From a virus, in IMG/VR virus record IMGVR_UViG_3300029483_000012: DNA of 50,395 nt; one strand, 5' to 3'. This document shows, in pieces, positions 9,764 through 25,121 of this stretch. Position numbers and translations under genes: made by a program. A model generated the notes under the pieces. It saw nothing but the letters and a program-made list of their open reading frames with translations, had not been told where the DNA came from and searched no databases. Position 1 is the stretch's first letter. The number at the start of each line of letters is the position of its first letter.

Positions 9764-12700
9764 ATGGCCTGGTTAGGCGTAATCACGAACAACGGAAACG
9801 ACCTGCTGACCCGGTGGGTGGAGGGGAAGAACCTGCACATCACCAGAGCGGCGGCGGGGCAAGGGCGAGTGGAGCAGACCGCCATGCTGGCGCAGTCGGC
9901 TCTTGTGAACGAAAAGCAGACGGTGAGCATCGTGTCCAACACACCGGCAGAAAAGGGCCAGAGGCTCAAACTGCAAGTGACGGCACAGGCTGCGGTGGGG
10001 TACAACCTCAACCAGTTCGGCGTATGGGCGAGACTGGACGAGGAAGAAGATCAAATGATCGCCCTGTTCCAGACGGATACGGACATCGGCATTGAAATCC
10101 CGAGCAAGGAGGCCATGCCGGACTTTGTATACACATTCTACGGGCTGCTGGCATTCTCCAACCAGGGAAACCTTACGGTCAAAATTGATGCCGCCGCTGT
10201 GGTGACGGCGGAAACCATGGGACAGGCAATCGCTGAGGTCATGGGTGCCCACGCCGGAGACCGGGAGGCCCACGCGGCCTTGTTCGAGAAAAAGGCGGAT
10301 TTGGGCGCTGACAGAAAAGTGGTGATCGACCAGCTCCCTGTAAACACGCCGAACGGTGTAGCGGGGCTGGACAAGGACGGCAAGGTGAGCGCCACCCAGC
10401 TGCCGGTGAACGCACCGAACGGCATAGCGGGACTTGGCGACGACGGGAAGATTGCGGCGGCGCAGCTCCCCAGCTATGTGGATGATGTGGTGGAGGGCTA
10501 TTACCATGAGGGTGCTTTCTACTCTGACCCGGCCCACCGGGAGCAGATCACCCCGGAAAGCGGCAAGGTCTACATGGATGCGGAAACCAACATCACATAC
10601 CGGTGGAGCGGGCACAGCTATGCGCCCATCGGCTCCGACCTGGCCCTGGGCGAAACGCAGAGTACAGCCTACCGCGGTGATCGAGGCAAGATCGCATACG
10701 ACCACAGCATGACCAAGGAGGGAAACCCCCACGGAACGAAAGCCGCAGACATTGGCTATACCGACAATAAGGGGCTGGGGGCGACCAACTTGCAGGGGGC
10801 TATGGACGCAGCCGCGCAAAAAGCAACCGACGCGCAGAAGTCTGCGGACGCGGCGCTGGAAGCCATCACAAAAATTGGGCACACCATCGACGCTGTGCCC
10901 AGCCAGAACGGAACGCTGACCTATACCGGAAGCGAGCAAAGCCCGACCTGGAACAGCTATAACCCGGAGACCATGACCATGGGCGGCGTGACCAAGGGAA
11001 CGGATGCCGGGTCGTATAACGCCACATTTACCCCGAAGGAGGGGTACACCTGGGGAGACGGAACCAACGAGACAAAAACCGCAGTGTGGAAAATCGGGCG
11101 GGCCACGATCATGGCGGTGCCCAGCCAGTCCGGGGCGCTGGCCTATACCGGAAGCGCACAGACACCGGCCTGGGCCAACTACGAAAGCACAAAGCTGACC
11201 CTGGGCGGAACCACCAGCGGAACCAATGCGGGAAGCTATGAGGCGACCTTTACGCCAAAGGCCAACTACCAGTGGCAGGACGGAAGCACGACCGCAAAGA
11301 CCGCCGTATGGCGCATTGAACGGGCAAAAATCGCAGTGGTGCCCAGCCAGTCCGGGGCACTGACCTATACCGGCGGGGCGCAAAGCCCGAGCTGGAGCAA
11401 CTATGACAGCACAAAGCTGACCCTGGGCGGCACTACCAGCGGAACTGCCGCGGGCAACTACAACGCGACATTTACACCGAAAGAAAACTACCGGTGGCAG
11501 GATGGAAGTGTGACCGCCAAAAATGCGGCGTGGGCCATTCAAAAGGCGGCAGGCACGCTGGCCCTCTCCCCCACCTCCATGACCCTGGACGCCTCTGCCA
11601 AGAGCAAGAGCATCACTGTGACCAAGAACGGCACGGGGGCGGTCTCGGCCACCGCATCGCCCAGCGGCGTGGTGACGGTGAGCGTGAGCGGGAACACGGT
11701 CACGGTGACTGCCGTTAAGGACGGAAACGCCACAGTGACGGTGAATGTGGCGGCGGACGCCAACCACACCGCCCCGAGTGCAAAGACCTGTTCTGTGAAG
11801 GTGGAGATGCCGAACATCTACGGCGTGGAGTGGGACGGCACCAGCACAACGGTGTGGAGCCGGACGGATAAGGCGGCAGGCTTCACGAACCCTGTGCCCT
11901 ATGTGGCCGGGCAGAGCAAGTACGGAAGCCCGTTCGATAACCTGATGCCCTGGAGCGGGATGGTTCGGTCAAGCGACCCCGCAGCGGGCGAGCTGGTGGC
12001 TATCCCGAAATTCTGGTTCAAGTGGACAAAGAGCGGGAGCCGGTTGAAACTCCAGATCGCGGACAAGGCGACGCCGGGTTTCCATGTCTCCCCGGCCCAC
12101 GCAGACCGCGGGGACGGAAAGGGCGAGCGGAACACCGTGTACATTGGCCGGTATCACTGCCACACGAGCAACTGGAAAAGCCAGAGCGGCGGAAAGCCCA
12201 AGGCAGACATCACCCGGAGCGCGGCGCGGAGCGGTATCCACGGCCTGGGCGGCACCATCTGGCAGAGCGACATCCAAATCCGCATGACGATCTGGATGCT
12301 GTACCTGGTGGAGTTCGCAGACTGGAACAGCCAAAAGACCATCGGCAAAGGCTGCGGAGACAACAGTGCCCCCGGCAACATGGGTTATACGGATAGTATG
12401 CCGTACCATACCGGAACTACGCAGAACAGCCGGGACAGCTACGGCCTGGGCACACAGTACCGGAACATTGAGGGTCTTTGGGACAATGTATACGACTGGG
12501 GAGACGGCTGCTACTACAACAGCGCGGGGCTGAACATCATCATGAACCCCAATCAATTCAGCGACACCAGCGGGGGAACCGCCGTGGGCGTACCCACGAG
12601 CGGGTGGCCCAGTGCATTTGCGGTGGCAACGAAAAGCGGTCTGGAGTGGTGCATCTACCCCACGGCGACGGGGGGCAGTGAGACCACCTACTCGTCGGAT

Positions 12701-12847
12701 TACTGGAACTTCGGCGCGTCCTACCCGTGTCTGTGCTTCGGCGGTGGCTATTACCGGAGCGGGGACCGCGGGTTGTTCTTTGTGTACTACAATTCCGTGT
12801 CGAGCGCCGTCGCGGACATCGGCTGCCGCCTCCAAAAACTCCCCTGA
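9764..12847 (+). CDS. Tail fibre / receptor-binding protein; DGR target protein with a C-terminal C-type-lectin-like variable domain
   Basis: 1027 aa. N-terminal tail-collar-like segment, then QLPVN.PNG.AGL..DGK short repeats, 3 x 74-aa Ig-like tandem repeats and a Big_2-like segment (LALSPTSMTLDASAKSKSITV...). The C-terminal domain's last about 46 codons are the VR matching the downstream TR. Confidence 0.9.
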   Translation: MAWLGVITNNGNDLLTRWVEGKNLHITRAAAGQGRVEQTAMLAQSALVNEKQTVSIVSNTPAEKGQRLKLQVTAQAAVGYNLNQFGVWARLDEEEDQMIALFQTDTDIGIEIPSKEAMPDFVYTFYGLLAFSNQGNLTVKIDAAAVVTAETMGQAIAEVMGAHAGDREAHAALFEKKADLGADRKVVIDQLPVNTPNGVAGLDKDGKVSATQLPVNAPNGIAGLGDDGKIAAAQLPSYVDDVVEGYYHEGAFYSDPAHREQITPESGKVYMDAETNITYRWSGHSYAPIGSDLALGETQSTAYRGDRGKIAYDHSMTKEGNPHGTKAADIGYTDNKGLGATNLQGAMDAAAQKATDAQKSADAALEAITKIGHTIDAVPSQNGTLTYTGSEQSPTWNSYNPETMTMGGVTKGTDAGSYNATFTPKEGYTWGDGTNETKTAVWKIGRATIMAVPSQSGALAYTGSAQTPAWANYESTKLTLGGTTSGTNAGSYEATFTPKANYQWQDGSTTAKTAVWRIERAKIAVVPSQSGALTYTGGAQSPSWSNYDSTKLTLGGTTSGTAAGNYNATFTPKENYRWQDGSVTAKNAAWAIQKAAGTLALSPTSMTLDASAKSKSITVTKNGTGAVSATASPSGVVTVSVSGNTVTVTAVKDGNATVTVNVAADANHTAPSAKTCSVKVEMPNIYGVEWDGTSTTVWSRTDKAAGFTNPVPYVAGQSKYGSPFDNLMPWSGMVRSSDPAAGELVAIPKFWFKWTKSGSRLKLQIADKATPGFHVSPAHADRGDGKGERNTVYIGRYHCHTSNWKSQSGGKPKADITRSAARSGIHGLGGTIWQSDIQIRMTIWMLYLVEFADWNSQKTIGKGCGDNSAPGNMGYTDSMPYHTGTTQNSRDSYGLGTQYRNIEGLWDNVYDWGDGCYYNSAGLNIIMNPNQFSDTSGGTAVGVPTSGWPSAFAVATKSGLEWCIYPTATGGSETTYSSDYWNFGASYPCLCFGGGYYRSGDRGLFFVYYNSVSSAVADIGCRLQKLP
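10895..11560 (+). repeat. Three tandem 222-bp (74-aa) Ig-like repeats inside the tail fibre gene
   Basis: Units start at 10895, 11117 and 11339 (VPSQ[NS]G.L.YTG..Q.P.W.NY....T.GG.T.GT.AG.Y.ATFTPK..Y.W.DG...K.A.W.I). Confidence 0.9.
12691..12829 (+). repeat. DGR variable region (VR) at the 3' end of the tail fibre gene
   Basis: 139-nt alignment to 13143-13281 with no gaps. By hand count there are 18 mismatches. 17 of them are positions where the TR has A and the VR has G or T; one is C to T. Confidence 0.9.
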
Positions 12848-12886
12848 CAGGGGAGGGGGTGCAGGGGGACGGGGGCCGCAGCCCCC
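12839..12886 (+). promoter_or_regulatory. GC-rich hairpins just 3' of the VR (candidate DGR target-recognition cruciform)
   Basis: ctcccct-gac-aggggag (12839-12855, spanning the stop codon) and gggggc-cgca-gccccc (12871-12886). No T-run follows either hairpin. Confidence 0.5.
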
Positions 12887-13142
12887 TCCCTCCTGCATAT
12901 CCCCGGCCCGCAGGCCGTCGTCCTCGCGGACTTTACATCGCTTGCCTCGCCGCAACGCGGCAAGGCGCACTCGCGCCGTCGCTCGTCCTCACCCGCCCGA
13001 ACCCGCCGTGCTGGGCTTCGGGCGGGCGGAAAAGAAGCGGACGAGAGACGGAAGATAAGAAACCTTAACGGGTTTTCCGCCGCAAACGCGGCGTGAAAAT
13101 ACAGGGGGAGATCGCGCACGCAGTCGGTGCCTTGGTTTTTGG

Positions 13143-13281
13143 CTCGTCGGATAACTGGAACTTCAACGCGTCCAACCCGTGTCTGCACTTCGGCGGTAAC
13201 TATAACCGGAACGGGAACCACGGGTTGTTCTATGTGAACTACAATTCCGTGTCGAACGCCAACGCGAACATCGGCTGCCGC
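13143..13281 (+). repeat. DGR template region (TR)
   Basis: Non-coding copy of the VR, rich in AAC codons in the VR reading frame (SDNWNFNASNPCLHFGGNYNRNGNHGLFYVNYNSVSNANANIGCR). It lies 280 nt upstream of the RT gene. Confidence 0.9.
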
Positions 13282-13560
13282 GTCCTTTTAGGACTGGCTA
13301 CCCACCTCCATTCCTCGTCGTCACAAGCTGCGGAGCGTGCGCCCCGGCCCACGGGCCAGGGCTTACTTCCTCCGCTGCTCTTCCTCTTCCTTGCAAACCC
13401 GCTGATGCTGGGCTTTGCTCGGATGGGGAGAGGCGAGGGCGTGATCTTCCTCGGCACCCCTTGGTGCAGATTAGCCAACAGGACACGGTTTAGTACACTC
13501 CCGCAACCGGCGGGAGCGGTGGAAAGATCGTGAGGCTAAAAGGAGGAGCAAACATCCTGT
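13282..13560 (+). ncRNA. Putative DGR RNA spacer between the TR and the RT gene
   Basis: No credible ORF is present. The position corresponds to the Sp segment of the BPP-1 DGR RNA. Extent and transcript ends are not determined. Confidence 0.4.
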
Positions 13561-14664
13561 ATGAAACGAGCAAAAGACCTATACCAAAAACTGATTTCAG
13601 ACGAAAATCTCAGGCTGGCAATCCTCACGGTGAACGCTACGCATAAATGGCACCCACACCACAGGCCAAATAAAACGGTGCTGCGGGTGGAGGCGGACAT
13701 CGACGGATATGTGGAGAAGCTGCGGGAGATCATCGTCAACGGATATGATGCGGCCCCACCAAGAATAGCCCGGCGCTGGGACAAGAGCGCCGGAAAATGG
13801 AGGGACATATCAGAGCCGAGATTGTGGCCTGACCAGTATGTTCACCATGCGGTCATTCAAGTTCTGGAACCGGTGCTGATGCGGGGAATGGACAAGTTCT
13901 GCTGCGGAAGTATCAAGGGCCGGGGCATCCATTACGGCGTTAAGGCAATCAAGAAATGGATGCGGACAGACCCGAAAGGGACGAAGTATGCAGAGGAGCT
14001 GGACATCCACCATTTTTACGACAGCCTGACCATTGAAACGGTGATGGCCCGCCTGCGGAGGCTGGTCAAAGACCGGAGGATGCTGGATGTATGTGAGCGG
14101 CTGATGAAGTACGGCGTCCTGATTGGCGCATTCTTCTCACAGTGGTTTGCCAACACGGTGCTGCAACCGCTTGACCAGATGATACGGAACAGCGGGCTGT
14201 GTGACCACTATATGCGGTACATGGACAACCTGACGCTGTTCGGGCGGAACAAAAGGAAACTGCGAAAGCTGCGGGGCATGATCGAGGATTGGCTTGCAGG
14301 CCGCCGGTTGAAGCTAAACAACAAGTGGCAGCTCTATCCGACGGCAAAGCGGACGGTGGCGGCGCTGGGATACCGGTTCGGCCATAAGTTTTCCCTGCTG
14401 CGAAAGCGGAATATGGTGCGGTTGAAAAAGTCGCTATCAGAATGTTATCGGGCCATGCGGAAACACCGGAAGATCAGGCCGAAGCTGGCACAGGGCCTAT
14501 TGTCACGGTTGGGCCAAATGAAGCACTGCAACCATGTACATTTCTTTGAGAAGTATGTGGAAACAGGGCTGCAACGAAAATTGAAGCTCGTGGTAAGAGA
14601 GCATACGAGAAAGGAGCAGGCAAGATGGAATATGTGTACGGAACCGCTGAAATCGACGGCGTGA
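13561..14664 (+). CDS. DGR-type reverse transcriptase
   Basis: 367 aa. RT motifs read by eye: RDISEP...D.YVHHAV, SIKGRGIHYG, LDIHHFYDS, VLIGAFFSQ (the DGR-typical [ILV]GxxxSQ), YMRYMDNLTLFG (YMDN in place of YxDD) and LGYRF. It sits directly after the TR. Confidence 0.9.
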   Translation: MKRAKDLYQKLISDENLRLAILTVNATHKWHPHHRPNKTVLRVEADIDGYVEKLREIIVNGYDAAPPRIARRWDKSAGKWRDISEPRLWPDQYVHHAVIQVLEPVLMRGMDKFCCGSIKGRGIHYGVKAIKKWMRTDPKGTKYAEELDIHHFYDSLTIETVMARLRRLVKDRRMLDVCERLMKYGVLIGAFFSQWFANTVLQPLDQMIRNSGLCDHYMRYMDNLTLFGRNKRKLRKLRGMIEDWLAGRRLKLNNKWQLYPTAKRTVAALGYRFGHKFSLLRKRNMVRLKKSLSECYRAMRKHRKIRPKLAQGLLSRLGQMKHCNHVHFFEKYVETGLQRKLKLVVREHTRKEQARWNMCTEPLKSTA

Positions 14665-17975: not shown

Positions 17976-19357
17976 ATTATACACGCAACAGTGAAAATAA
18001 CTATTGCGGAACGGGAAAATATTGGGTATCATAAGGGTGTAAAATGCGACAAAACAAGACAAGCGGAACGGAACCGGGAAACCGGAAACCGCCCGCAGGG
18101 ATGCACGGAAGGAGGTATTACAGTGCAGGCCAAGGAGCGCACATTTAAGCACCTGACAAAGAACGACAGGCTGAGAATGGAACGGTGGCTGAACAAAGGG
18201 ATGAAGCCGAGAGAGATTGCAGATAAGCTGCGCGTCCACATCTCCACCGTCTACCGGGAATTGAAGCGGGGAGAATATGAGCGGCTGGATGGGGACACCT
18301 GGGAGATGGTGACGGCGTACAGCCCGGACATCGCAGAGGAGCGGTATCAAAATCACTTACGGGAAAAAGGGCCAGACTTGAAGATTGGAGCAGATCACGA
18401 ATTGGCCCGATACATCGAGGAGACGATCATCGCCAACGATTGCAGCCCTGCCGCTGTACTGGGGTATGCAAAGATGGAGGGCCGGACATTCAAGACCTCT
18501 GTTTCCGTAGCAACCATTTACAGCTATATCAAAAAAGGGATATTCCTGCGTATCACACAGGTGGATTTGCCGCGGCGCGGGAAGAAAAAGCAGGGGTACA
18601 AAAAGGTAAAGACAAGGAAAGACCAGGCCAGGGCATCTGCCGGTGAGAGCATCGAACGCAGACCGGAGAGAGTAAAGAACCGGGAGGAGTTTGGGCACTG
18701 GGAAATGGATACGGTGTACAATAAAAAGGATAGTACCAGCAAGGCGCTTCTGGTACTGACCGAGAGAAAGACCCGGCGGGAGATCATCATACTGATACCG
18801 AACCGCAAAGCGGAGACCATTGTTAAAGCATTGGACGCACTGGAGCGGAAAATCGGAGCAGTGAATTTCAGGAAGATTTTTAGAACGATTACGGTTGATA
18901 ACGGCTCTGAGTTCTCGGCGGCGGAGGAGATGGAGCGCAGCGCTGTCAACAAGACCATCCCCCGGACAAAGGTTTATTTCTGCCACCCCTATTCATCGTG
19001 GGAGCGCGGGAGCAACGAAAACGCCAACATTATGATTAGGCGGAAACACCCCAAGGGAACCGACTTTGAAAAGGTGAGCGCAAGACAGATCGCCGAGACC
19101 GAACAATGGATAAACAACTACCCCCGGAAGATACTGGGGTATATAAGTAGCGAAGTGGCTTTCCGGGCCTGCTTGCGGGAGATAGGGCTATCGGCGTAGG
19201 CCGGATGGGACGCATGGGAGAAAGGGGGAAACTGGAGGGGGCATGAGGAACATAATAAGGAAAAGCGGAGGCTGCCGACCAAGGGAATTGACGGCGGCCA
19301 TATTGTCATGTTAAAATTAGACAAAATAAAAGGTGAAAATTTGTGCGCAATAAATGC
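17976..19357 (+). mobile_element. IS30-family element (boundaries approximate; inverted repeats not resolved by eye)
   Basis: The segment contains a complete IS30-type DDE transposase gene and looks more AT-rich than the flanks. It is bounded by the lysis terminator on one side and the early promoter on the other. Confidence 0.6.
18123..19199 (+). CDS. IS30-family DDE transposase
   Basis: 358 aa counted from GTG 18123 (GGAAGGAGG RBS). N-terminal HTH (REIADKLRVHISTVYRELKRG). DDE triad contexts GHWEMDTV, ITVDNGSEF and WERGSNENANIMIRR. Confidence 0.9.
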   Translation: MQAKERTFKHLTKNDRLRMERWLNKGMKPREIADKLRVHISTVYRELKRGEYERLDGDTWEMVTAYSPDIAEERYQNHLREKGPDLKIGADHELARYIEETIIANDCSPAAVLGYAKMEGRTFKTSVSVATIYSYIKKGIFLRITQVDLPRRGKKKQGYKKVKTRKDQARASAGESIERRPERVKNREEFGHWEMDTVYNKKDSTSKALLVLTERKTRREIIILIPNRKAETIVKALDALERKIGAVNFRKIFRTITVDNGSEFSAAEEMERSAVNKTIPRTKVYFCHPYSSWERGSNENANIMIRRKHPKGTDFEKVSARQIAETEQWINNYPRKILGYISSEVAFRACLREIGLSA

Positions 19358-22485: not shown

Positions 22486-23498
22486 ATGAACGAGGCAATT
22501 CATATCAGCAGCAGACAATTCCAGTATATCGCCCGTATCAGCCACGGAAAAGACAGCATGAAAATGCTGGATGTGATCGTGTTGCGTGGATTGCCTCTGG
22601 ACAGGATAACGACAACGGATATATGGGCAACTGACACTATCCGGGGCGAACACCCGAAGATGGTCGAGTTTAAGGATATGGCGGATGAATATATCTGGCG
22701 TAAATATCGCATCGAAGTTGAACACCTATGCGCTATGCGCAACGGGGAGAAGGTAACTTACGAAAAACTGTTTTACCATACACCGAAGCGCAAGATTGCG
22801 GGGGGGCACTGGTCAGCAGATAACTCCGAAAACGCGGGGGGGGGGGACAAGAAACAAGGAACAATCCTTGGTTTCCCAACCCTGTGGGGGCCGTGGTGCC
22901 AGTCAGACCTCAAACGAGTGGCAAGAAAACCGCATCCAGGGTTTTCCTGCACAAATCGGGAGCTGGTGCAAGAAACTCAAAATCGACTATATCCGGCTTC
23001 CCGGTCAGCGTTACCCGAAAAGGCCAGTGGTGCCAAAAACTCAAAACCAGATTTTCGGGAAGCCCCGCCACGAGGGGCGGTAAAAATATCGTGGAATACA
23101 TCGGTATTGCGGCAGATGAACCAAAGCGATTTGGGCAACTGAGCGAGCGCAAGCGTGCGCCGCTGGTGGAGTTTGGAATAGAGGAGGGGCTTTGCGGCCT
23201 GTACTGCCAGTACGAGGGTATCTTGGCACCGAGCTATGAAACAAGTTGCCGGGATGGGTGCTGGATGTGCCACAACCAAGGCGTTGACCAGCTCCGGCAA
23301 CTGCGGCGGGACTATCCAGAACTGTGGGCTTTGTTGCTGAAATGGGATGCGGATAGTCCAGTGAACTTTAAGCCAGATGGCCGGACAGTCCGTGACTATG
23401 ACGAGCGGTTTAGTCTGGAGGATGAAGGGTTTATCCATACGGACAAACGGTTTTTCTGGAGGATGCTGGACGAGCCGTTGCAAATGAGATTGTTTTAG
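22486..23498 (+). CDS. PAPS-reductase-family (PP-loop ATPase) protein, reading frame interrupted at a poly-G tract
   Basis: The N-terminal part carries the PP-loop SHGKDS (frame of 22486; this ORF ends at 23142). The C-terminal part (IVEYIGIAADEPKRF...CWMCHNQGVDQLRQLRRDYPELW) is in the frame of 22884-23498. One extra G in the G11 tract would fuse the two parts. Confidence 0.65.
22800..22806 (+). repeat. Homopolymeric G7 tract inside the PAPS-reductase-like gene
   Basis: Read directly from the sequence. Confidence 0.95.
22836..22846 (+). repeat. Homopolymeric G11 tract inside the PAPS-reductase-like gene (candidate slippage / phase-variation site)
   Basis: Read directly from the sequence. 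It lies just upstream of the point where the three frames diverge. Confidence 0.95.
22870..23045 (+). repeat. Three tandem diverged copies of the GFP-x(4-9)-WC-x2-LK module, each in a different reading frame
   Basis: GFPTLWGPWCQSDLK (22870-22914), GFPAQIGSWCKKLK (22940-22981) and GFPVSVTRKGQWCQKLK (22995-23045). The starts are spaced 70 and 55 nt apart, both 3n+1. Confidence 0.85.
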
Positions 23499-23756: not shown

Positions 23757-25121
23757 ATGAAAATGAAATTGCTGATTGGAGGCAGCCCATGCACGCACTG
23801 GTCTATCGCTCAGACAAAGAACCGTGAGACAGAGGCCAGCGGCATCGGATGGGAACTGTTTCTTAACTACAAGATCGCCAGGGACAAATATCAGCCGGAC
23901 TATTTTTTATACGAGAATAACAAGTCTATGTCAGCAGCCATACGGGAGCAGATCACACAAGAACTGGGTGTGGAGCCTGTGCTTATCAACTCGGCGCTGG
24001 TATCTGCTCAGAACCGCCAGCGGCTTTACTGGGTCGGGAAGCGTGAGCCTGACGGGACATACAATCAAGTGCCGGTGGAACAGCCGGAGGACAGGGGCAT
24101 ACTCCTGCGGGACATCCTGGAGACTGGCGTAGTGTGGAGAGAAAAGGCGTACACGCTGAAAGCAAACTACCACAAAGCATCCACTGTAAACGCCGTGGAC
24201 GGAGGACGTTTTCCGGCACCGATGGCTGCGGAACCAGTAAACACGACTGCGGACGGGAAAGCCCAATGCCTACGGGCCACATATTATAAAGATGGCATCC
24301 GAAATATGGTAGGAAACATGGTTGACCGAAAAACCTGCGTGGCAGAGCCGGTGCGTATCGGGACTATCGAAAGCGCCGCCAAAAACGCAGACTTTGACAG
24401 TCAGCAGTACAGGGTGTATTCGCCAGACGGGAAAAGCGTTACACTGTGCGGCCAGGGCGGCGGTGTAGGCGCAAAAACTGGGTTGTACGCAGTGCCGATG
24501 CGCGTCTACGAGGCGACTGCACAGGGATATACAGATATTCAGCCGGGAGAGTGCGTAGACCTGACCATGCCGAAGTCCAAAACACGGCGCGGCAGGGCTA
24601 TGAGAGAAAAAAGCAACTGCCTGACGACCTCGTGCGAGTATTACGAATACTGCGGGACGCTGGATGCACCGGTATACAAGGTCGAGGATGGGTATATCAC
24701 AATCAATGAAAAGAAATATCCTATCAAACTGCGAGATGGATGCTATATCATCCGAAAATTGACCGTAACTGAGTGCAAACGGCTCCAGACGGTGCCGGAG
24801 TGGTACATATTCCCAGCGTCAGACACACAGGCGTACAAAATGTTGGGAAATGGGTGGACGGTAGATGTGATCGCACACATCATGAGCCATTTCGGCGGAC
24901 TGGGGGGGAGATCGGTCGAGGTTTTGTCCATGTACGACGGAATGAGCTGCGGCCACATCGCACTGGACAAGCTGGGCGTAAATGTGACGGCATATTATGC
25001 AACAGAAATCGACAAGTACGCCATCCAGGCCACTATGCACAACTACCCGGAAACAGTGCAACTTGGGGATGCGTTCCAGGTACGGGATGATGGGTGGAAA
25101 GTTGAAGGGATGGAAGCATGA
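23757..25121 (+). CDS. DNA (cytosine-5) methyltransferase with circularly permuted motif order (IV-X followed by I-III)
   Basis: The N-terminus starts at motif IV (LLIGGSPCTHWS). ENN (VI), QNRQRLYW (VIII), RLQTVPEWY and GNGWTV (IX-X) follow. Motif I VLSMYDGMSCG, motif II ATEID and motif III LGDA occupy the last about 75 aa. Confidence 0.8.
   Translation: MKMKLLIGGSPCTHWSIAQTKNRETEASGIGWELFLNYKIARDKYQPDYFLYENNKSMSAAIREQITQELGVEPVLINSALVSAQNRQRLYWVGKREPDGTYNQVPVEQPEDRGILLRDILETGVVWREKAYTLKANYHKASTVNAVDGGRFPAPMAAEPVNTTADGKAQCLRATYYKDGIRNMVGNMVDRKTCVAEPVRIGTIESAAKNADFDSQQYRVYSPDGKSVTLCGQGGGVGAKTGLYAVPMRVYEATAQGYTDIQPGECVDLTMPKSKTRRGRAMREKSNCLTTSCEYYEYCGTLDAPVYKVEDGYITINEKKYPIKLRDGCYIIRKLTVTECKRLQTVPEWYIFPASDTQAYKMLGNGWTVDVIAHIMSHFGGLGGRSVEVLSMYDGMSCGHIALDKLGVNVTAYYATEIDKYAIQATMHNYPETVQLGDAFQVRDDGWKVEGMEA

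Follow-up and report, generated by a model that had tools for sequence, protein, structure and literature searches.

Phase variation by simple repeats normally switches a gene on or off, and programmed frameshifting normally delivers two products in a fixed ratio; at the phage locus described here, both appear to be coupled. Among the closest known systems are the Helicobacter pylori genes futA, futB and futC, in which a poly-C tract was reportedly found together with a −1 frameshift cassette by Wang, Rasko, Sherburne and Taylor in 1999. As in the gene studied here, an intragenic hypermutable homopolymer sets the reading frame and a signal further downstream partly restores a full-length product from the off-frame states, a step that we infer for the phage gene. 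But the fut genes encode a single protein version that is on, off or made at a low level, whereas here the frame would select a module copy and thereby change the isoform. Moreover, the putative slippery site of the phage gene is a T-run that would be usable from two incoming frames, and the proposed stimulator is a covarying H-type pseudoknot. The editing sites of the paramyxovirus P/V/W genes and of Ebola GP resemble the locus in that a G-rich or homopolymeric site opens three frames after a shared N-terminal part. In these viruses it is the viral RNA polymerase that slips, and translation ends in three unrelated C-terminal parts without rejoining a shared frame. In contrast, the variation at the phage locus resides in the DNA, each frame holds a paralogous copy of the same module, and a common C-terminal part follows.

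Contingency loci and phasevarions (mod, hsdS, opa, lic) likewise contain a slipped-strand intragenic repeat whose polymorphic length decides the frame; examples are the poly-G loci of Campylobacter (PMC4965091, PMC3025981). The classical loci switch on and off, sometimes with a truncated protein of altered specificity, but possess neither redundant off-frame modules nor a frame-restoring signal. The present gene also differs in its setting, since it belongs to temperate phages of gut Clostridia and is not a surface or restriction-modification gene of a pathogen. Finally, the −1 cassettes of the IS3 family, of dnaX and of the phage tail-chaperone genes G/GT combine a slippery run, a spacer and a stimulatory structure. 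The similarity to our locus extends to the spacer length (about 5-6 nt), to the type of structure (a stem-loop or an H-type pseudoknot whose connecting loop is A-rich) and to a nearby stop in the incoming frame. Such cassettes set a fixed ratio of two products per genotype, whereas the one described here is coupled to an upstream hypermutable tract and appears to merge two incoming frames, for which both a −1 and a −2 shift would be needed. A genome survey (PMC3711429) contains no such cluster, and our literature search found neither a described combination of a repeat tract with a frameshift signal nor a phase-variable phage PAPS reductase.

Layout of the locus and identity of the enzyme

The window is a stretch of 50,395 nucleotides of viral DNA (IMG/VR record IMGVR_UViG_3300029483_000012), and all features given below lie on its plus strand. 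The gene of interest appears to encode a phage SspD/DndC-like "PAPS-reductase" PP-loop enzyme. Its N-terminal part (22486..22799) is read in frame 1, and its translation can be aligned to the corresponding part of full-length homologs. The C-terminal part, GKNIVEYIGIAADEP…CRDGCWMCHNQ… (23079..23498, stop codon 23496-23498), is read in frame 0 and matches PHROG 424 and 28782. Between them lie a first hypermutable tract, G7 (22800..22806), a second one, G11 (22836..22846), which acts as the frame selector, and three tandem copies of the module GFP…WC…LK. Copy 1, GFPTLWGPWCQSDLK (22870..22914), is in frame 1, that of 22486, which in the assembled sequence is the phase of the N-terminus. Copy 2, GFPAQIGSWCKKLK followed by IDYIRL (22940..22981), is in frame 2, as seen from its translation and its own-frame pN/pS. 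Copy 3, GFPVSVTRKGQWCQKLK (22995..23045), shares frame 0 with the C-terminal part. The window as assembled is in the copy-1 state.

An earlier note on this DNA, made from the letters alone, had already described the two G tracts and the three copies with their positions and frames, their successive offsets of 70 and 55 nt, and the openness of all three forward frames from about 22824 to 23083. Each of these points was re-checked on the sequence and holds, with the three frames open from 22824 to about 23080. The same is true for the predicted consequences of tract length: G11 gives a 218-aa ORF (22486-23142), G10 a product that ends at 23083, and G12 the full-length protein of 337 aa. The three-frame observation is therefore correct throughout, and it goes beyond chance. 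The G11 tract is the sole homopolymer of more than 7 bases in the 50 kb window. The DNA core TGGTGY-N3-9-CTCAAA occurs four times in the window (0.07 expected), and three of these occurrences fall within 150 nt at the locus. The strong divergence of the copies in DNA sequence explains why Tandem Repeats Finder reported no array at the locus.

The assignment of the enzyme rests on several lines of evidence. The SxGxDS-type PP-loop motif near the N-terminus, SHGKDS (22540-22557, residues 19-24), is almost invariant among homologs. PHROG 424 ("PAPS reductase") was matched with E = 9.5e-16 by the G12 construct and with 5e-39 by a baseline homolog, and the PADLOC SspD profile matched with E = 5e-10. 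Together with the PP-loop fold of a close homolog, these are the features shared with SspD, DndC and phage "PAPS reductase" enzymes; unlike them, the gene has no sequence match in Pfam (nothing at E ≤ 10 with each frame and the full-length construct) or in a PDB sequence profile search. NCBIfam gave no match above its cut-off, blastn against GenBank phages found nothing, and the exact DNA pattern around the tract was not found in viral contigs. The split-looking gene of the GenBank phages nd4 and AR1074-1 was rejected as a counterpart, since the architecture is not shared. DNA methyltransferase genes adjoin the PP-loop gene.

For the fold, the homolog P0121 rather than the window protein was modelled with AlphaFold from a 92-sequence alignment. 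The model (pLDDT 91.6) adopts a PP-loop (adenine nucleotide alpha-hydrolase) fold. The top PDB matches in Foldseek were NcsA, [4Fe-4S] LarE, 5mkp, which is a [4Fe-4S]-dependent tRNA thiolation enzyme, and MnmA, with a probability of 1.0 but TM-scores of only ~0.4; by this comparison, the predicted fold appears nearest to PP-loop [4Fe-4S] sulfur transferases. In the same model the WC dipeptide of the module opens a core helix, and the Cys of the module is invariant across the 92 homologs.

Purifying selection on each copy and length variation of the tract

The N-terminal part of the gene showed pN/pS values of 0.03-0.2 in frame 1 only, and the C-terminal part values of 0.02-0.2 in frame 0. Selection on the copies was analyzed on 21 sequences picked by the geometry of their array and not by the motif, because a dN/dS test on motif-selected sequences suffers from ascertainment bias. 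For copy 1 the ratio was 0.08 in its own frame compared to 2.8 and 3.3 in the other two, with 13 of its 18 variable columns at the third codon position. Copy 2 gave 0.08 in its own frame and 0.94 in frame 1 (the ratio in frame 0 is undefined, as pS is 0), and copy 3 gave 0.28 compared to 1.1 and 1.7 elsewhere. The spacers between the copies look neutral in the same 21 sequences. Between the window and the related locus L001, all seven differences within copy 1 are synonymous in the copy's own frame, even though this is not the frame of the ORF called there. Hence, purifying selection maintains each copy in its own frame. The earlier note had argued that the off-frame copies are not the remains of a plain pseudogene or an assembly error, and the selection on them bears this out. 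Natural full-length proteins in which copy 1 or copy 2 is hard-wired in frame also exist, for example P0075 (42 contigs), L187, L092, L003 and L160.

We compared the locus with 162 non-identical relatives found in phages and prophages of gut Clostridia. In 84 of them a simple repeat occupies exactly the same site, either a poly-G of 6-17 bases (most of these genomes are short-read metagenome assemblies, so that long poly-G lengths carry some error) or, in the more distant relatives, an (AG) repeat of 6-17 units. In these 84 loci, the repeat is followed by two to four copies of the module in differing frames. In contrast, a single module without a repeat is seen in the 51 short-linker relatives, all of which are in frame. 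The search for the same three-frame architecture elsewhere, which the earlier note had called for, thus found it in dozens of diverged relatives. The offset between the N- and C-terminal frames is distributed 29/22/33 among the repeat-bearing loci and 74/1/3 among the repeat-free ones, counts that, like all those across the loci, overstate independence, since the sequences are phylogenetically related.

Direct comparison of close relatives demonstrates that the length of the tract varies at the DNA level. The window has G7 and G11 where the otherwise nearly identical flanks of L232 enclose G9 and G7, and in L233 both tracts are merged into one G9. Several sets of near-identical genomes differ solely in tract length. 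L023 and L025, on two contigs of one MAG, were compared over 4.1 kb, and a single AG unit is the only difference between them. As the translations in three frames show, such changes in length shift the frame and thereby give a different product. An identical 218-aa product is encoded by seven independent contigs, and therefore the G7/G11 state of the window is not a one-off assembly error. The polymorphic tract and the own-frame selection on the copies together support the idea of a homopolymer-controlled choice among three isoforms, as originally suggested.

The openness of the frames was also quantified in the relatives. Of 213 modules, 211 can be reached from the repeat without a stop, compared to 87.5 expected. 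The three frames are open from the repeat to the T-run described below in 77, 73 and 60 of 78 loci, with about 5 expected, and the blocked ones are mostly those whose module has been lost. Openness of all three frames across the array is far above the prediction from shuffled sequences. In the frames other than that of the C-terminal part, stops cluster within a few dozen nucleotides past the end of the array, just after the T-run.

A candidate recoding cassette downstream of the array

Directly 3' of the array, a conserved candidate recoding cassette (23052-23094) consists of a T-run, a 5-nt spacer and an H-type pseudoknot. The run itself, TTTTC preceded by A (23052..23056), encodes Phe in all three registers (TTT at 23052, TTT at 23053, TTC at 23054). 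The motif, a non-T base and then TTTT[TC], is conserved at the nucleotide level and would permit re-pairing at −1 and −2; it differs from the canonical heptamer X XXY YYZ. Among 57 distinct sequences of the region, 50 carry the T-run in register 0 of the C-terminal frame with a preceding base that is never T; the run is absent from the other seven. Phe at this site is encoded by TTT in 51 of 51 cases compared to 37% TTT elsewhere in the same genes, and the codon after it starts with T in every case. Of 78 loci, 36 have a stop as the very next codon after Phe when read one base ahead. The spacer between the run and the structure is mostly 5 nt long (range 3-6). A few repeat-bearing loci (L124, L057) have a C-run in place of the T-run.

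Stem 1 of the pseudoknot pairs GCCCC (23062-23066) with GGGGC (23074-23078) around the loop GCCACGA, and stem 2 pairs CCACGA (23068-23073) with TCGTGG (23089-23094); the A-rich connecting loop, GGTAAAAATA, extends over 23079-23088. Both stems covary. For stem 1, which was realigned by a covariance model, 92.6% of the cells are paired, 13 cells show double changes compared to 1.7 in shuffles, and the covariation score was reached by 0 of 500 shuffles. For stem 2, which was derived from position-defined strings, 94.3% of the cells are paired compared to 22-48% with the partner slid, five of the six pairs show changes on both sides, and again 0 of 500 shuffles reached the score. The covariance model R1 has a single match in the window (23049-23084, 42.5 bits). 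The model of the cassette matches 77 of the 84 repeat-bearing loci, with the remaining seven below its threshold, and none of the 51 short-linker baseline loci. It is the covariation, not the energy, that supports the hairpin, which on its own is thermodynamically unexceptional in the window (z = −1.0). Rfam contains no family matching the structure. An outer helix in the minimum-free-energy fold was rejected, as it is absent from other lineages, and so was an intrinsic terminator on either strand, as no U-tract follows the stem.

According to the earlier note, only the frame of copy 3 leads to a full-length enzyme, and the copy-1 and copy-2 states end in truncation. This stands for ribosomes that do not shift: in the copy-1 state they would stop at TGA in frame 1 (23140..23142), which yields the 218-aa product, and in the copy-2 state at TAA in frame 2 (23081..23083), within the connecting loop of the pseudoknot. 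But the T-run and the pseudoknot suggest that ribosomes may return to the C-terminal frame, so that truncation would not be the only outcome.

Proposed mechanism and alternative explanations

From these sequence features we consider it fairly probable that the repeat picks the frame, and with it the module, and that a −1 or −2 ribosomal frameshift then restores the C-terminal frame, resulting in three full-length isoforms of 337 aa. The length of the hypermutable repeat sets which of three frames exits the N-terminal part. Each frame holds its own copy of the apparently essential module G-F-P-x(5-8)-W-C-x(2-3)-L-K, the copies being 3n+1 nt apart. At the T4-5 run, tRNA-Phe could move back and re-pair by one or two bases at most, and the run with its spacer and pseudoknot would thereby funnel the frames into one: a ribosome that is one base ahead of the C-terminal frame would slip by −1, one that is two bases ahead by −2, and one already in this frame would continue unshifted. 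Any tract length would then lead to a full-length enzyme that differs in its active-site module (copy 1, 2 or 3); the three predicted isoforms are 337 aa long and contain exactly one module each. The predicted junction peptides are …NSKPDFSGSPATR for the copy-1 state and …TQNQIFSGSPATR for the copy-2 state. Isoform levels are probably unequal, because unshifted ribosomes would terminate just past the signal. One of the incoming frames would require a −2 frameshift, of which few cases are known. We also considered that serial +1 shifts might join all three copies in a single protein, but rejected this in view of the lack of spacer conservation and of the open state of every frame downstream of the repeat.

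The early stops could instead be the purpose of the switch. The repeat would then switch the gene among the full-length enzyme and two short N-terminal isoforms that have a function of their own (regulation, a dominant-negative effect or ligand binding), this function would account for the selection on the module, and the pseudoknot would pause ribosomes or control termination. The state of the window as assembled, whose 218-aa product recurs on seven contigs, agrees with this idea, as do the end of the non-C frames within a few dozen nucleotides of the array and the frequency of truncated ORFs in the protein database, such as P0105 with 51 members. Nevertheless, we regard it as unlikely. Judged by the structural model, the short forms would be devoid of the strand after the module helix, the GIAADEP motif and the invariant CxxC, which makes catalysis by them improbable. 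Moreover, truncation as an end in itself leaves unexplained why a three-register Phe run is located 5 nt before a covarying pseudoknot only in array-bearing lineages, and why the frames stay open up to this run, past the end of each module.

A less probable explanation, to which we give a low weight, places the mix of frames mainly at the level of RNA or the ribosome: on G11 or (AG)n, the polymerase might stutter or tRNA-Gly slip, so that one genotype would make all three isoforms at once, in the manner of paramyxovirus P/V/W editing. A roughly uniform spread of frame states would be tolerable if each genotype made all isoforms, and long homopolymers are generally known to cause transcriptional slippage; to our knowledge, RNA polymerase slippage on dinucleotide (AG)n repeats is not established. 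Slippage during transcription of A/T runs has been addressed before (PMC1088944). However, the length variation in the DNA is seen directly and is sufficient alone, and slippage at the RNA level could act alongside the frame choice and frameshift proposed above.

Still more doubtful is a split enzyme, in which the off-frame C-terminal part would have a translation start of its own at GTG 23091, through internal initiation or termination-reinitiation, and assemble with the copy-1 or copy-2 N-terminal fragment. This codon is GTG in 78 of the 84 repeat-bearing loci, compared to 37% GTG among the Val codons elsewhere in the same genes, but its conservation is accounted for by its position in stem 2 of the pseudoknot. 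Loci with ATC, GTT or GTC instead, of which ATC is no start codon, retain the array and carry compensating loop changes, and on these grounds an internal start at GTG 23091 was rejected. Frame 2 ends at its TAA 7 nt before this GTG, at which a gene caller predicted an ORF to start; the G-rich stretch 12-14 nt upstream, however, is sequestered in stem 1. In addition, the model suggests that the Rossmann-like core would be cut between a helix and the next central strand, a demanding place for reassembly.

A decaying pseudogene or an assembly artefact, with a poly-G frameshift error in a gene with junk tandem duplications, has in effect been refuted by the comparison with relatives. Poly-G runs do attract sequencing errors and several contigs break exactly at the tract, but the same state occurs on seven contigs, the (AG)n relatives show the same three states, every copy is under strong purifying selection in its own frame, the openness of all three frames is conserved, and a covarying pseudoknot is present.

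Returning to the choice of module by the repeat with subsequent return to the C-terminal frame, we give slightly better than even odds to the view that the virus diversifies a protein in a previously undescribed way, without recombination or reverse transcription, by means of a repeat, three cassettes and a −1/−2 funnel that together would permit heritable and reversible switching among three full-length isoforms. If true, this would be a new design principle for isoform switching, a natural case of −1 and −2 frameshifts merging frames at one site, and an instance of three-way overlapping coding kept by selection. The SspD/DndC-like gene neighbours DNA methyltransferase genes, and the temperate phages that carry it infect Clostridia abundant in the gut; the isoform switch might therefore serve to vary nucleic-acid modification in the arms race between phage and host. 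For practical purposes, annotation by gene callers is unreliable at these genes, which are split or truncated in about two thirds of the assemblies.

An out-of-phase module array behind a simple repeat

The gene at 22486-23498 carries a G7 tract (22800-22806) and a G11 tract (22836-22846), followed by three tandem copies of a module with the consensus G-F-P-x(5-8)-W-C-x(2-3)-L-K at 22870-22914, 22940-22981 and 22995-23045. Successive copies are offset by 70 and 55 nt, and each is therefore readable in its own frame only: copy 1 in phase with the 218-aa N-terminal ORF (22486-23142; frame 1), copy 2 in frame 2, and copy 3 in phase with the conserved C-terminal part ending at 23498 (frame 0, the C frame). 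All three forward frames are free of stops from 22824 to ~23080. The window sequence thus bears out the earlier note with respect to the tracts, the copies and their spacing, the frames of the ORF and the C-terminal part, and the open frames. Apart from G11, no homopolymer in the 50-kb window exceeds 7 nt, and the DNA core of the module occurs four times, three of them in the array, compared to 0.07 expected occurrences. Seven independent contigs encode the 218-aa product with identical sequence. A frame 0 TAA lies between the two tracts (22821-22823), so that length combinations placing ribosomes in frame 0 at this point would switch the gene truly OFF, a feature not shared by single-tract loci. 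Only three G-runs of at least seven exist in the window, including a G7 tract at 24902-24908 within the adjacent C5 DNA methylase ORF (23757-25121).

Protein searches returned thousands of relatives. From genomes, viral contigs and metagenomes, we retrieved 230 loci and anchored the conserved N- and C-terminal parts by tblastn, which placed both anchors in 189 loci (162 unique). Baseline loci have a linker of 90-108 nt, a single module and no repeat, and their gene is always in frame. The architecture of a repeat followed by out-of-phase modules proved to be shared by 84 of the 162 unique loci. In this expanded class (linker of 166-376 nt), the N-terminal anchor is directly followed by a simple repeat and then by 2-4 modules in different frames. 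Their spacing is always 3n+1 (70/55, ~82/67 or 58/58 nt, in three diverged lineages). The repeat is mostly poly-G (6-17), in other loci (AG) with 6-17 units at the same position. Which module lies in the C-terminal frame varies by lineage, being the last in that of the window and the first in others. A different form is found in Phage nd4 (L234, GenBank OR777945.1, 1483-2451), where the KLFYH…GFP…C…LK segment is duplicated in frame, as also in repeat-less relatives with a 243-nt linker; in nd4, moreover, TGA stands in frame in place of the Trp codon of the invariant CWFC motif, and the annotated gene is thereby split into two.

Selection on the copies was assessed by Nei-Gojobori pN/pS per segment and frame in 21 unique sequences sharing the array geometry of the window, a set that avoids motif-choice bias and includes N-termini in any of the three frames. 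Copy 1 gave 0.08 in frame 1 (2.8 in frame 2, 3.3 in frame 0), copy 2 gave 0.08 in frame 2 (0.94 in frame 1, undefined in frame 0, where pS = 0), and copy 3 gave 0.28 in frame 0 (1.1 in frame 1, 1.7 in frame 2). The first spacer, between copies 1 and 2, stayed at ~0.9 in all three frames. In a sliding-window analysis of 49 sequences, the selected frame moves from 1 to 2 to 0 along the region. Hence, every copy is selected in its own frame, and the view of the earlier note that the out-of-frame copies are maintained, rather than remnants of a plain pseudogene, holds. Moreover, 211 of 213 modules have a stop-free path from the repeat, compared to 87.5 expected; although shared phylogeny means that the counts are not independent, the effect is large and recurs in three lineages. 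From the repeat to a conserved T-run behind the array, the three frames are open in 77, 73 and 60 of 78 loci (~5 expected), and blocked frames are mostly those with a decayed or absent module. The end of copy 2 (KLKIDYIRL, frame 2) and the start of copy 3 (KSTISGFP, frame 0) share the DNA at 22970-23003. Variation is very low here in every frame (pS 0.03-0.12), which suggests genuine dual coding.

Length variation of the repeat and loss of the array

Tract length, and hence the frame, differs among near-identical loci (G11/G10/G17; G10/G9; G9/G8; G9/G8/G10), including those with two tracts (G8+G10 vs G10+G8 vs G13+G10). One relative with 93% identity to the window carries G9+G7 instead of G7+G11 between almost identical flanks, a net change that restores the frame. 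Two contigs of one MAG (L023 and L025; 27,090 and 27,088 bp) are one AG unit apart and otherwise identical over the 4.1 kb compared. In this (AG)n lineage (L023:540-700 and L025), the repeat has been tandemly duplicated along with its 5' flank (CAAYCTGTTCAWGT), so that two (AG)n tracts are present, in analogy to the pair of G tracts in the window. The offset between N- and C-terminal frames is distributed 29/22/33 over its three states in repeat-bearing loci compared to 74/1/3 without a repeat. The repeat is therefore hypermutable and polymorphic at the DNA level; RNA-level slippage at the tract may add to this variation. Metagenome and viral contigs start (L110, L170, L171, L195) or end (L225, L227, L230) exactly at the repeat, around residues 103-124 of the protein, as would be expected from assembler failure at a heterogeneous or low-quality tract.

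The array can also be lost. In a locus 95% identical to the window gene (L233:1775-2000, compared to window 22800-23030; P0007, 279 aa), two deletions, one between the two G tracts and one between the GTGGTGCC of copy 1 and its homologous counterpart in copy 3, have left one hybrid module in frame. Recombination between copies thus also occurs and gives baseline-like genes.

A candidate recoding cassette and its proposed role

Directly adjoining the 3' end of the array, just upstream of the C-terminal anchor, synonymous sites are unusually conserved and resolve into a T-run, a spacer and two stems, an element absent from the earlier note. The T-run (23052-23056; a non-T base, then TTTT[TC]) is present in 50 of 57 distinct region sequences and missing from seven. 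It always starts at a C-frame codon and therefore encodes Phe in all three registers; together with the preceding non-T base, this start means that a backward slip cannot pass the C frame. The Phe is TTT in 51/51 cases (37% elsewhere in the same genes), and the following codon always begins with T (Leu TTR 22/22 vs 19% elsewhere; Ser TCN 28/28 vs 42%).

After a spacer of usually 5 nt follows the GC-rich stem 1 (5-7 bp; 23062-66 with 23074-78), with compensatory variants GCCCC/GGGGC, GCTCC/GGAGC, GCGCC/GGCGC, GCCCG/CGGGC, GTCCG/CGGAC, GCGCG/CGCGC and GCGGG/CCCGC. After realignment of the rows by a covariance model, 92.6% of cells were paired and 13 were double changes (1.7 in shuffles). In stem 2, the loop (CCACGA, 23068-73) pairs with a segment 9-13 nt downstream (TCGTGG, 23089-94). 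Tested on position-defined strings, which excludes selection for complementarity, 94.3% of cells were paired compared to 22-48% with a slid partner, and five of six pairs had changed on both sides. For each stem, none of 500 shuffles reached the score. Stem 2 pairing also accounts for the use of GTG as the Val codon of IVEY, seen in 78 of 84 repeat-bearing loci; in the few with ATC, GTT or GTC, the loop changes match. Together, the two stems make up a classical H-type pseudoknot, whose first loop is 1 nt long and whose third loop is A-rich, located 5 nt after the putatively slippery T-run. The covariance model has one match per array-bearing locus (23049-23084 in the window). Among unique loci (E ≤ 0.01), the cassette occurs in 77/84 with a repeat, 0/51 with a short linker without repeat, and 7/27 with a long linker without repeat, which are derivatives. 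An Rfam search found no family matching this arrangement.

In the model that we propose, repeat length sets the frame and thereby selects exactly one module to be read. Ribosomes one or two bases ahead of the C frame would then slip by −1 or −2, respectively, at the T-run and continue into the C-terminal part, while those already in the C frame would not shift. For frameshifting in general, a U-run that precedes a short spacer can permit shifts of −2 in addition to −1, which we take as a lead. The model is supported by the open frames reaching the T-run. Moreover, one base ahead of the C frame, the Phe codon is immediately succeeded by a stop in 36/78 loci, in agreement with slippage in the P site while the A site is vacant. 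The comparison directly shows the repeat with its length polymorphism in DNA, the own-frame selection, the open frames, the T-run and the pseudoknot; a ribosomal shift at the T-run, how efficiently and in which direction it would occur, and differences in isoform function are inferred. The three products predicted for the window would have 337 aa and one module each. The roughly even spread over the three offset states is as expected if all are viable, and natural full-length genes with copy 1 or copy 2 hard-wired in frame (P0075, on 42 contigs; L187, L092, L003, L160) indicate that such isoforms are tolerated.

Alternatively, the truncated isoforms may serve a separate function, but this would leave the cassette unexplained, and the short forms would lack core catalytic elements. 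A split enzyme with re-initiation at the GTG is disfavoured by the covariation, since the ATC variant is compensated in the loop. The comparative data exclude a pseudogene or assembly error.

Both components, phase variation through simple repeats and frameshifting stimulated by a pseudoknot, are known, and in H. pylori fucosyltransferase genes a poly-C tract is combined with a frameshift cassette. Our literature search found no paper describing a repeat, a module array and a frameshift cassette together. We have come across no description of an active-site module present in three selected copies out of phase with one another, of a signal by which two incoming frames would merge into one, or of such an arrangement in gut Clostridia phages.

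The enzyme and other features of the phage

Sequence searches of Pfam, NCBIfam and the PDB with the gene product gave nothing useful, but it matched the profiles of PHROG 424 ("phosphoadenosine phosphosulfate reductase") and PADLOC SspD. The AlphaFold model of a single-module homolog is a confident PP-loop fold (pLDDT 91.6). Its nearest solved structures, with TM-scores of only ~0.4, are NcsA, LarE, the tRNA thiolation enzyme 5mkp ([4Fe-4S]-dependent sulfur transferases) and MnmA. In this model, the WC of the module opens a core helix and the IVEYIGIAADEP segment forms the next strand. In 92 homologs, the Cys of the module is invariant, as is a CxxC further downstream; we infer that an Fe-S cluster may be bound by these three residues. 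The gene neighbours are phage-typical (dUTPase, small zinc-ribbon proteins, C5 DNA methylase), with a Dam-type methylase directly upstream in close relatives. The hosts belong to the Oscillospiraceae and to other groups of gut Clostridia.

The phage also carries a diversity-generating retroelement (12691-14664). Its 143-nt variable repeat (12691-12833) differs from the template repeat (13143-13285) at 19 positions, 17 of which are A in the template, and a reverse transcriptase ORF (13561-14664; Pfam RVT_1) lies 3' of the template. Three 78-nt direct repeats (10886-11407), placed 222 nt apart and 73-78% identical, lie upstream of the retroelement target region and probably code for domain repeats in a tail or receptor-binding protein. 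Within the phage region, an IS30-like transposase ORF (17991-19199; HTH_38 and rve integrase core) is located between the genes for the lysis/tail lysozyme and the dUTPase.
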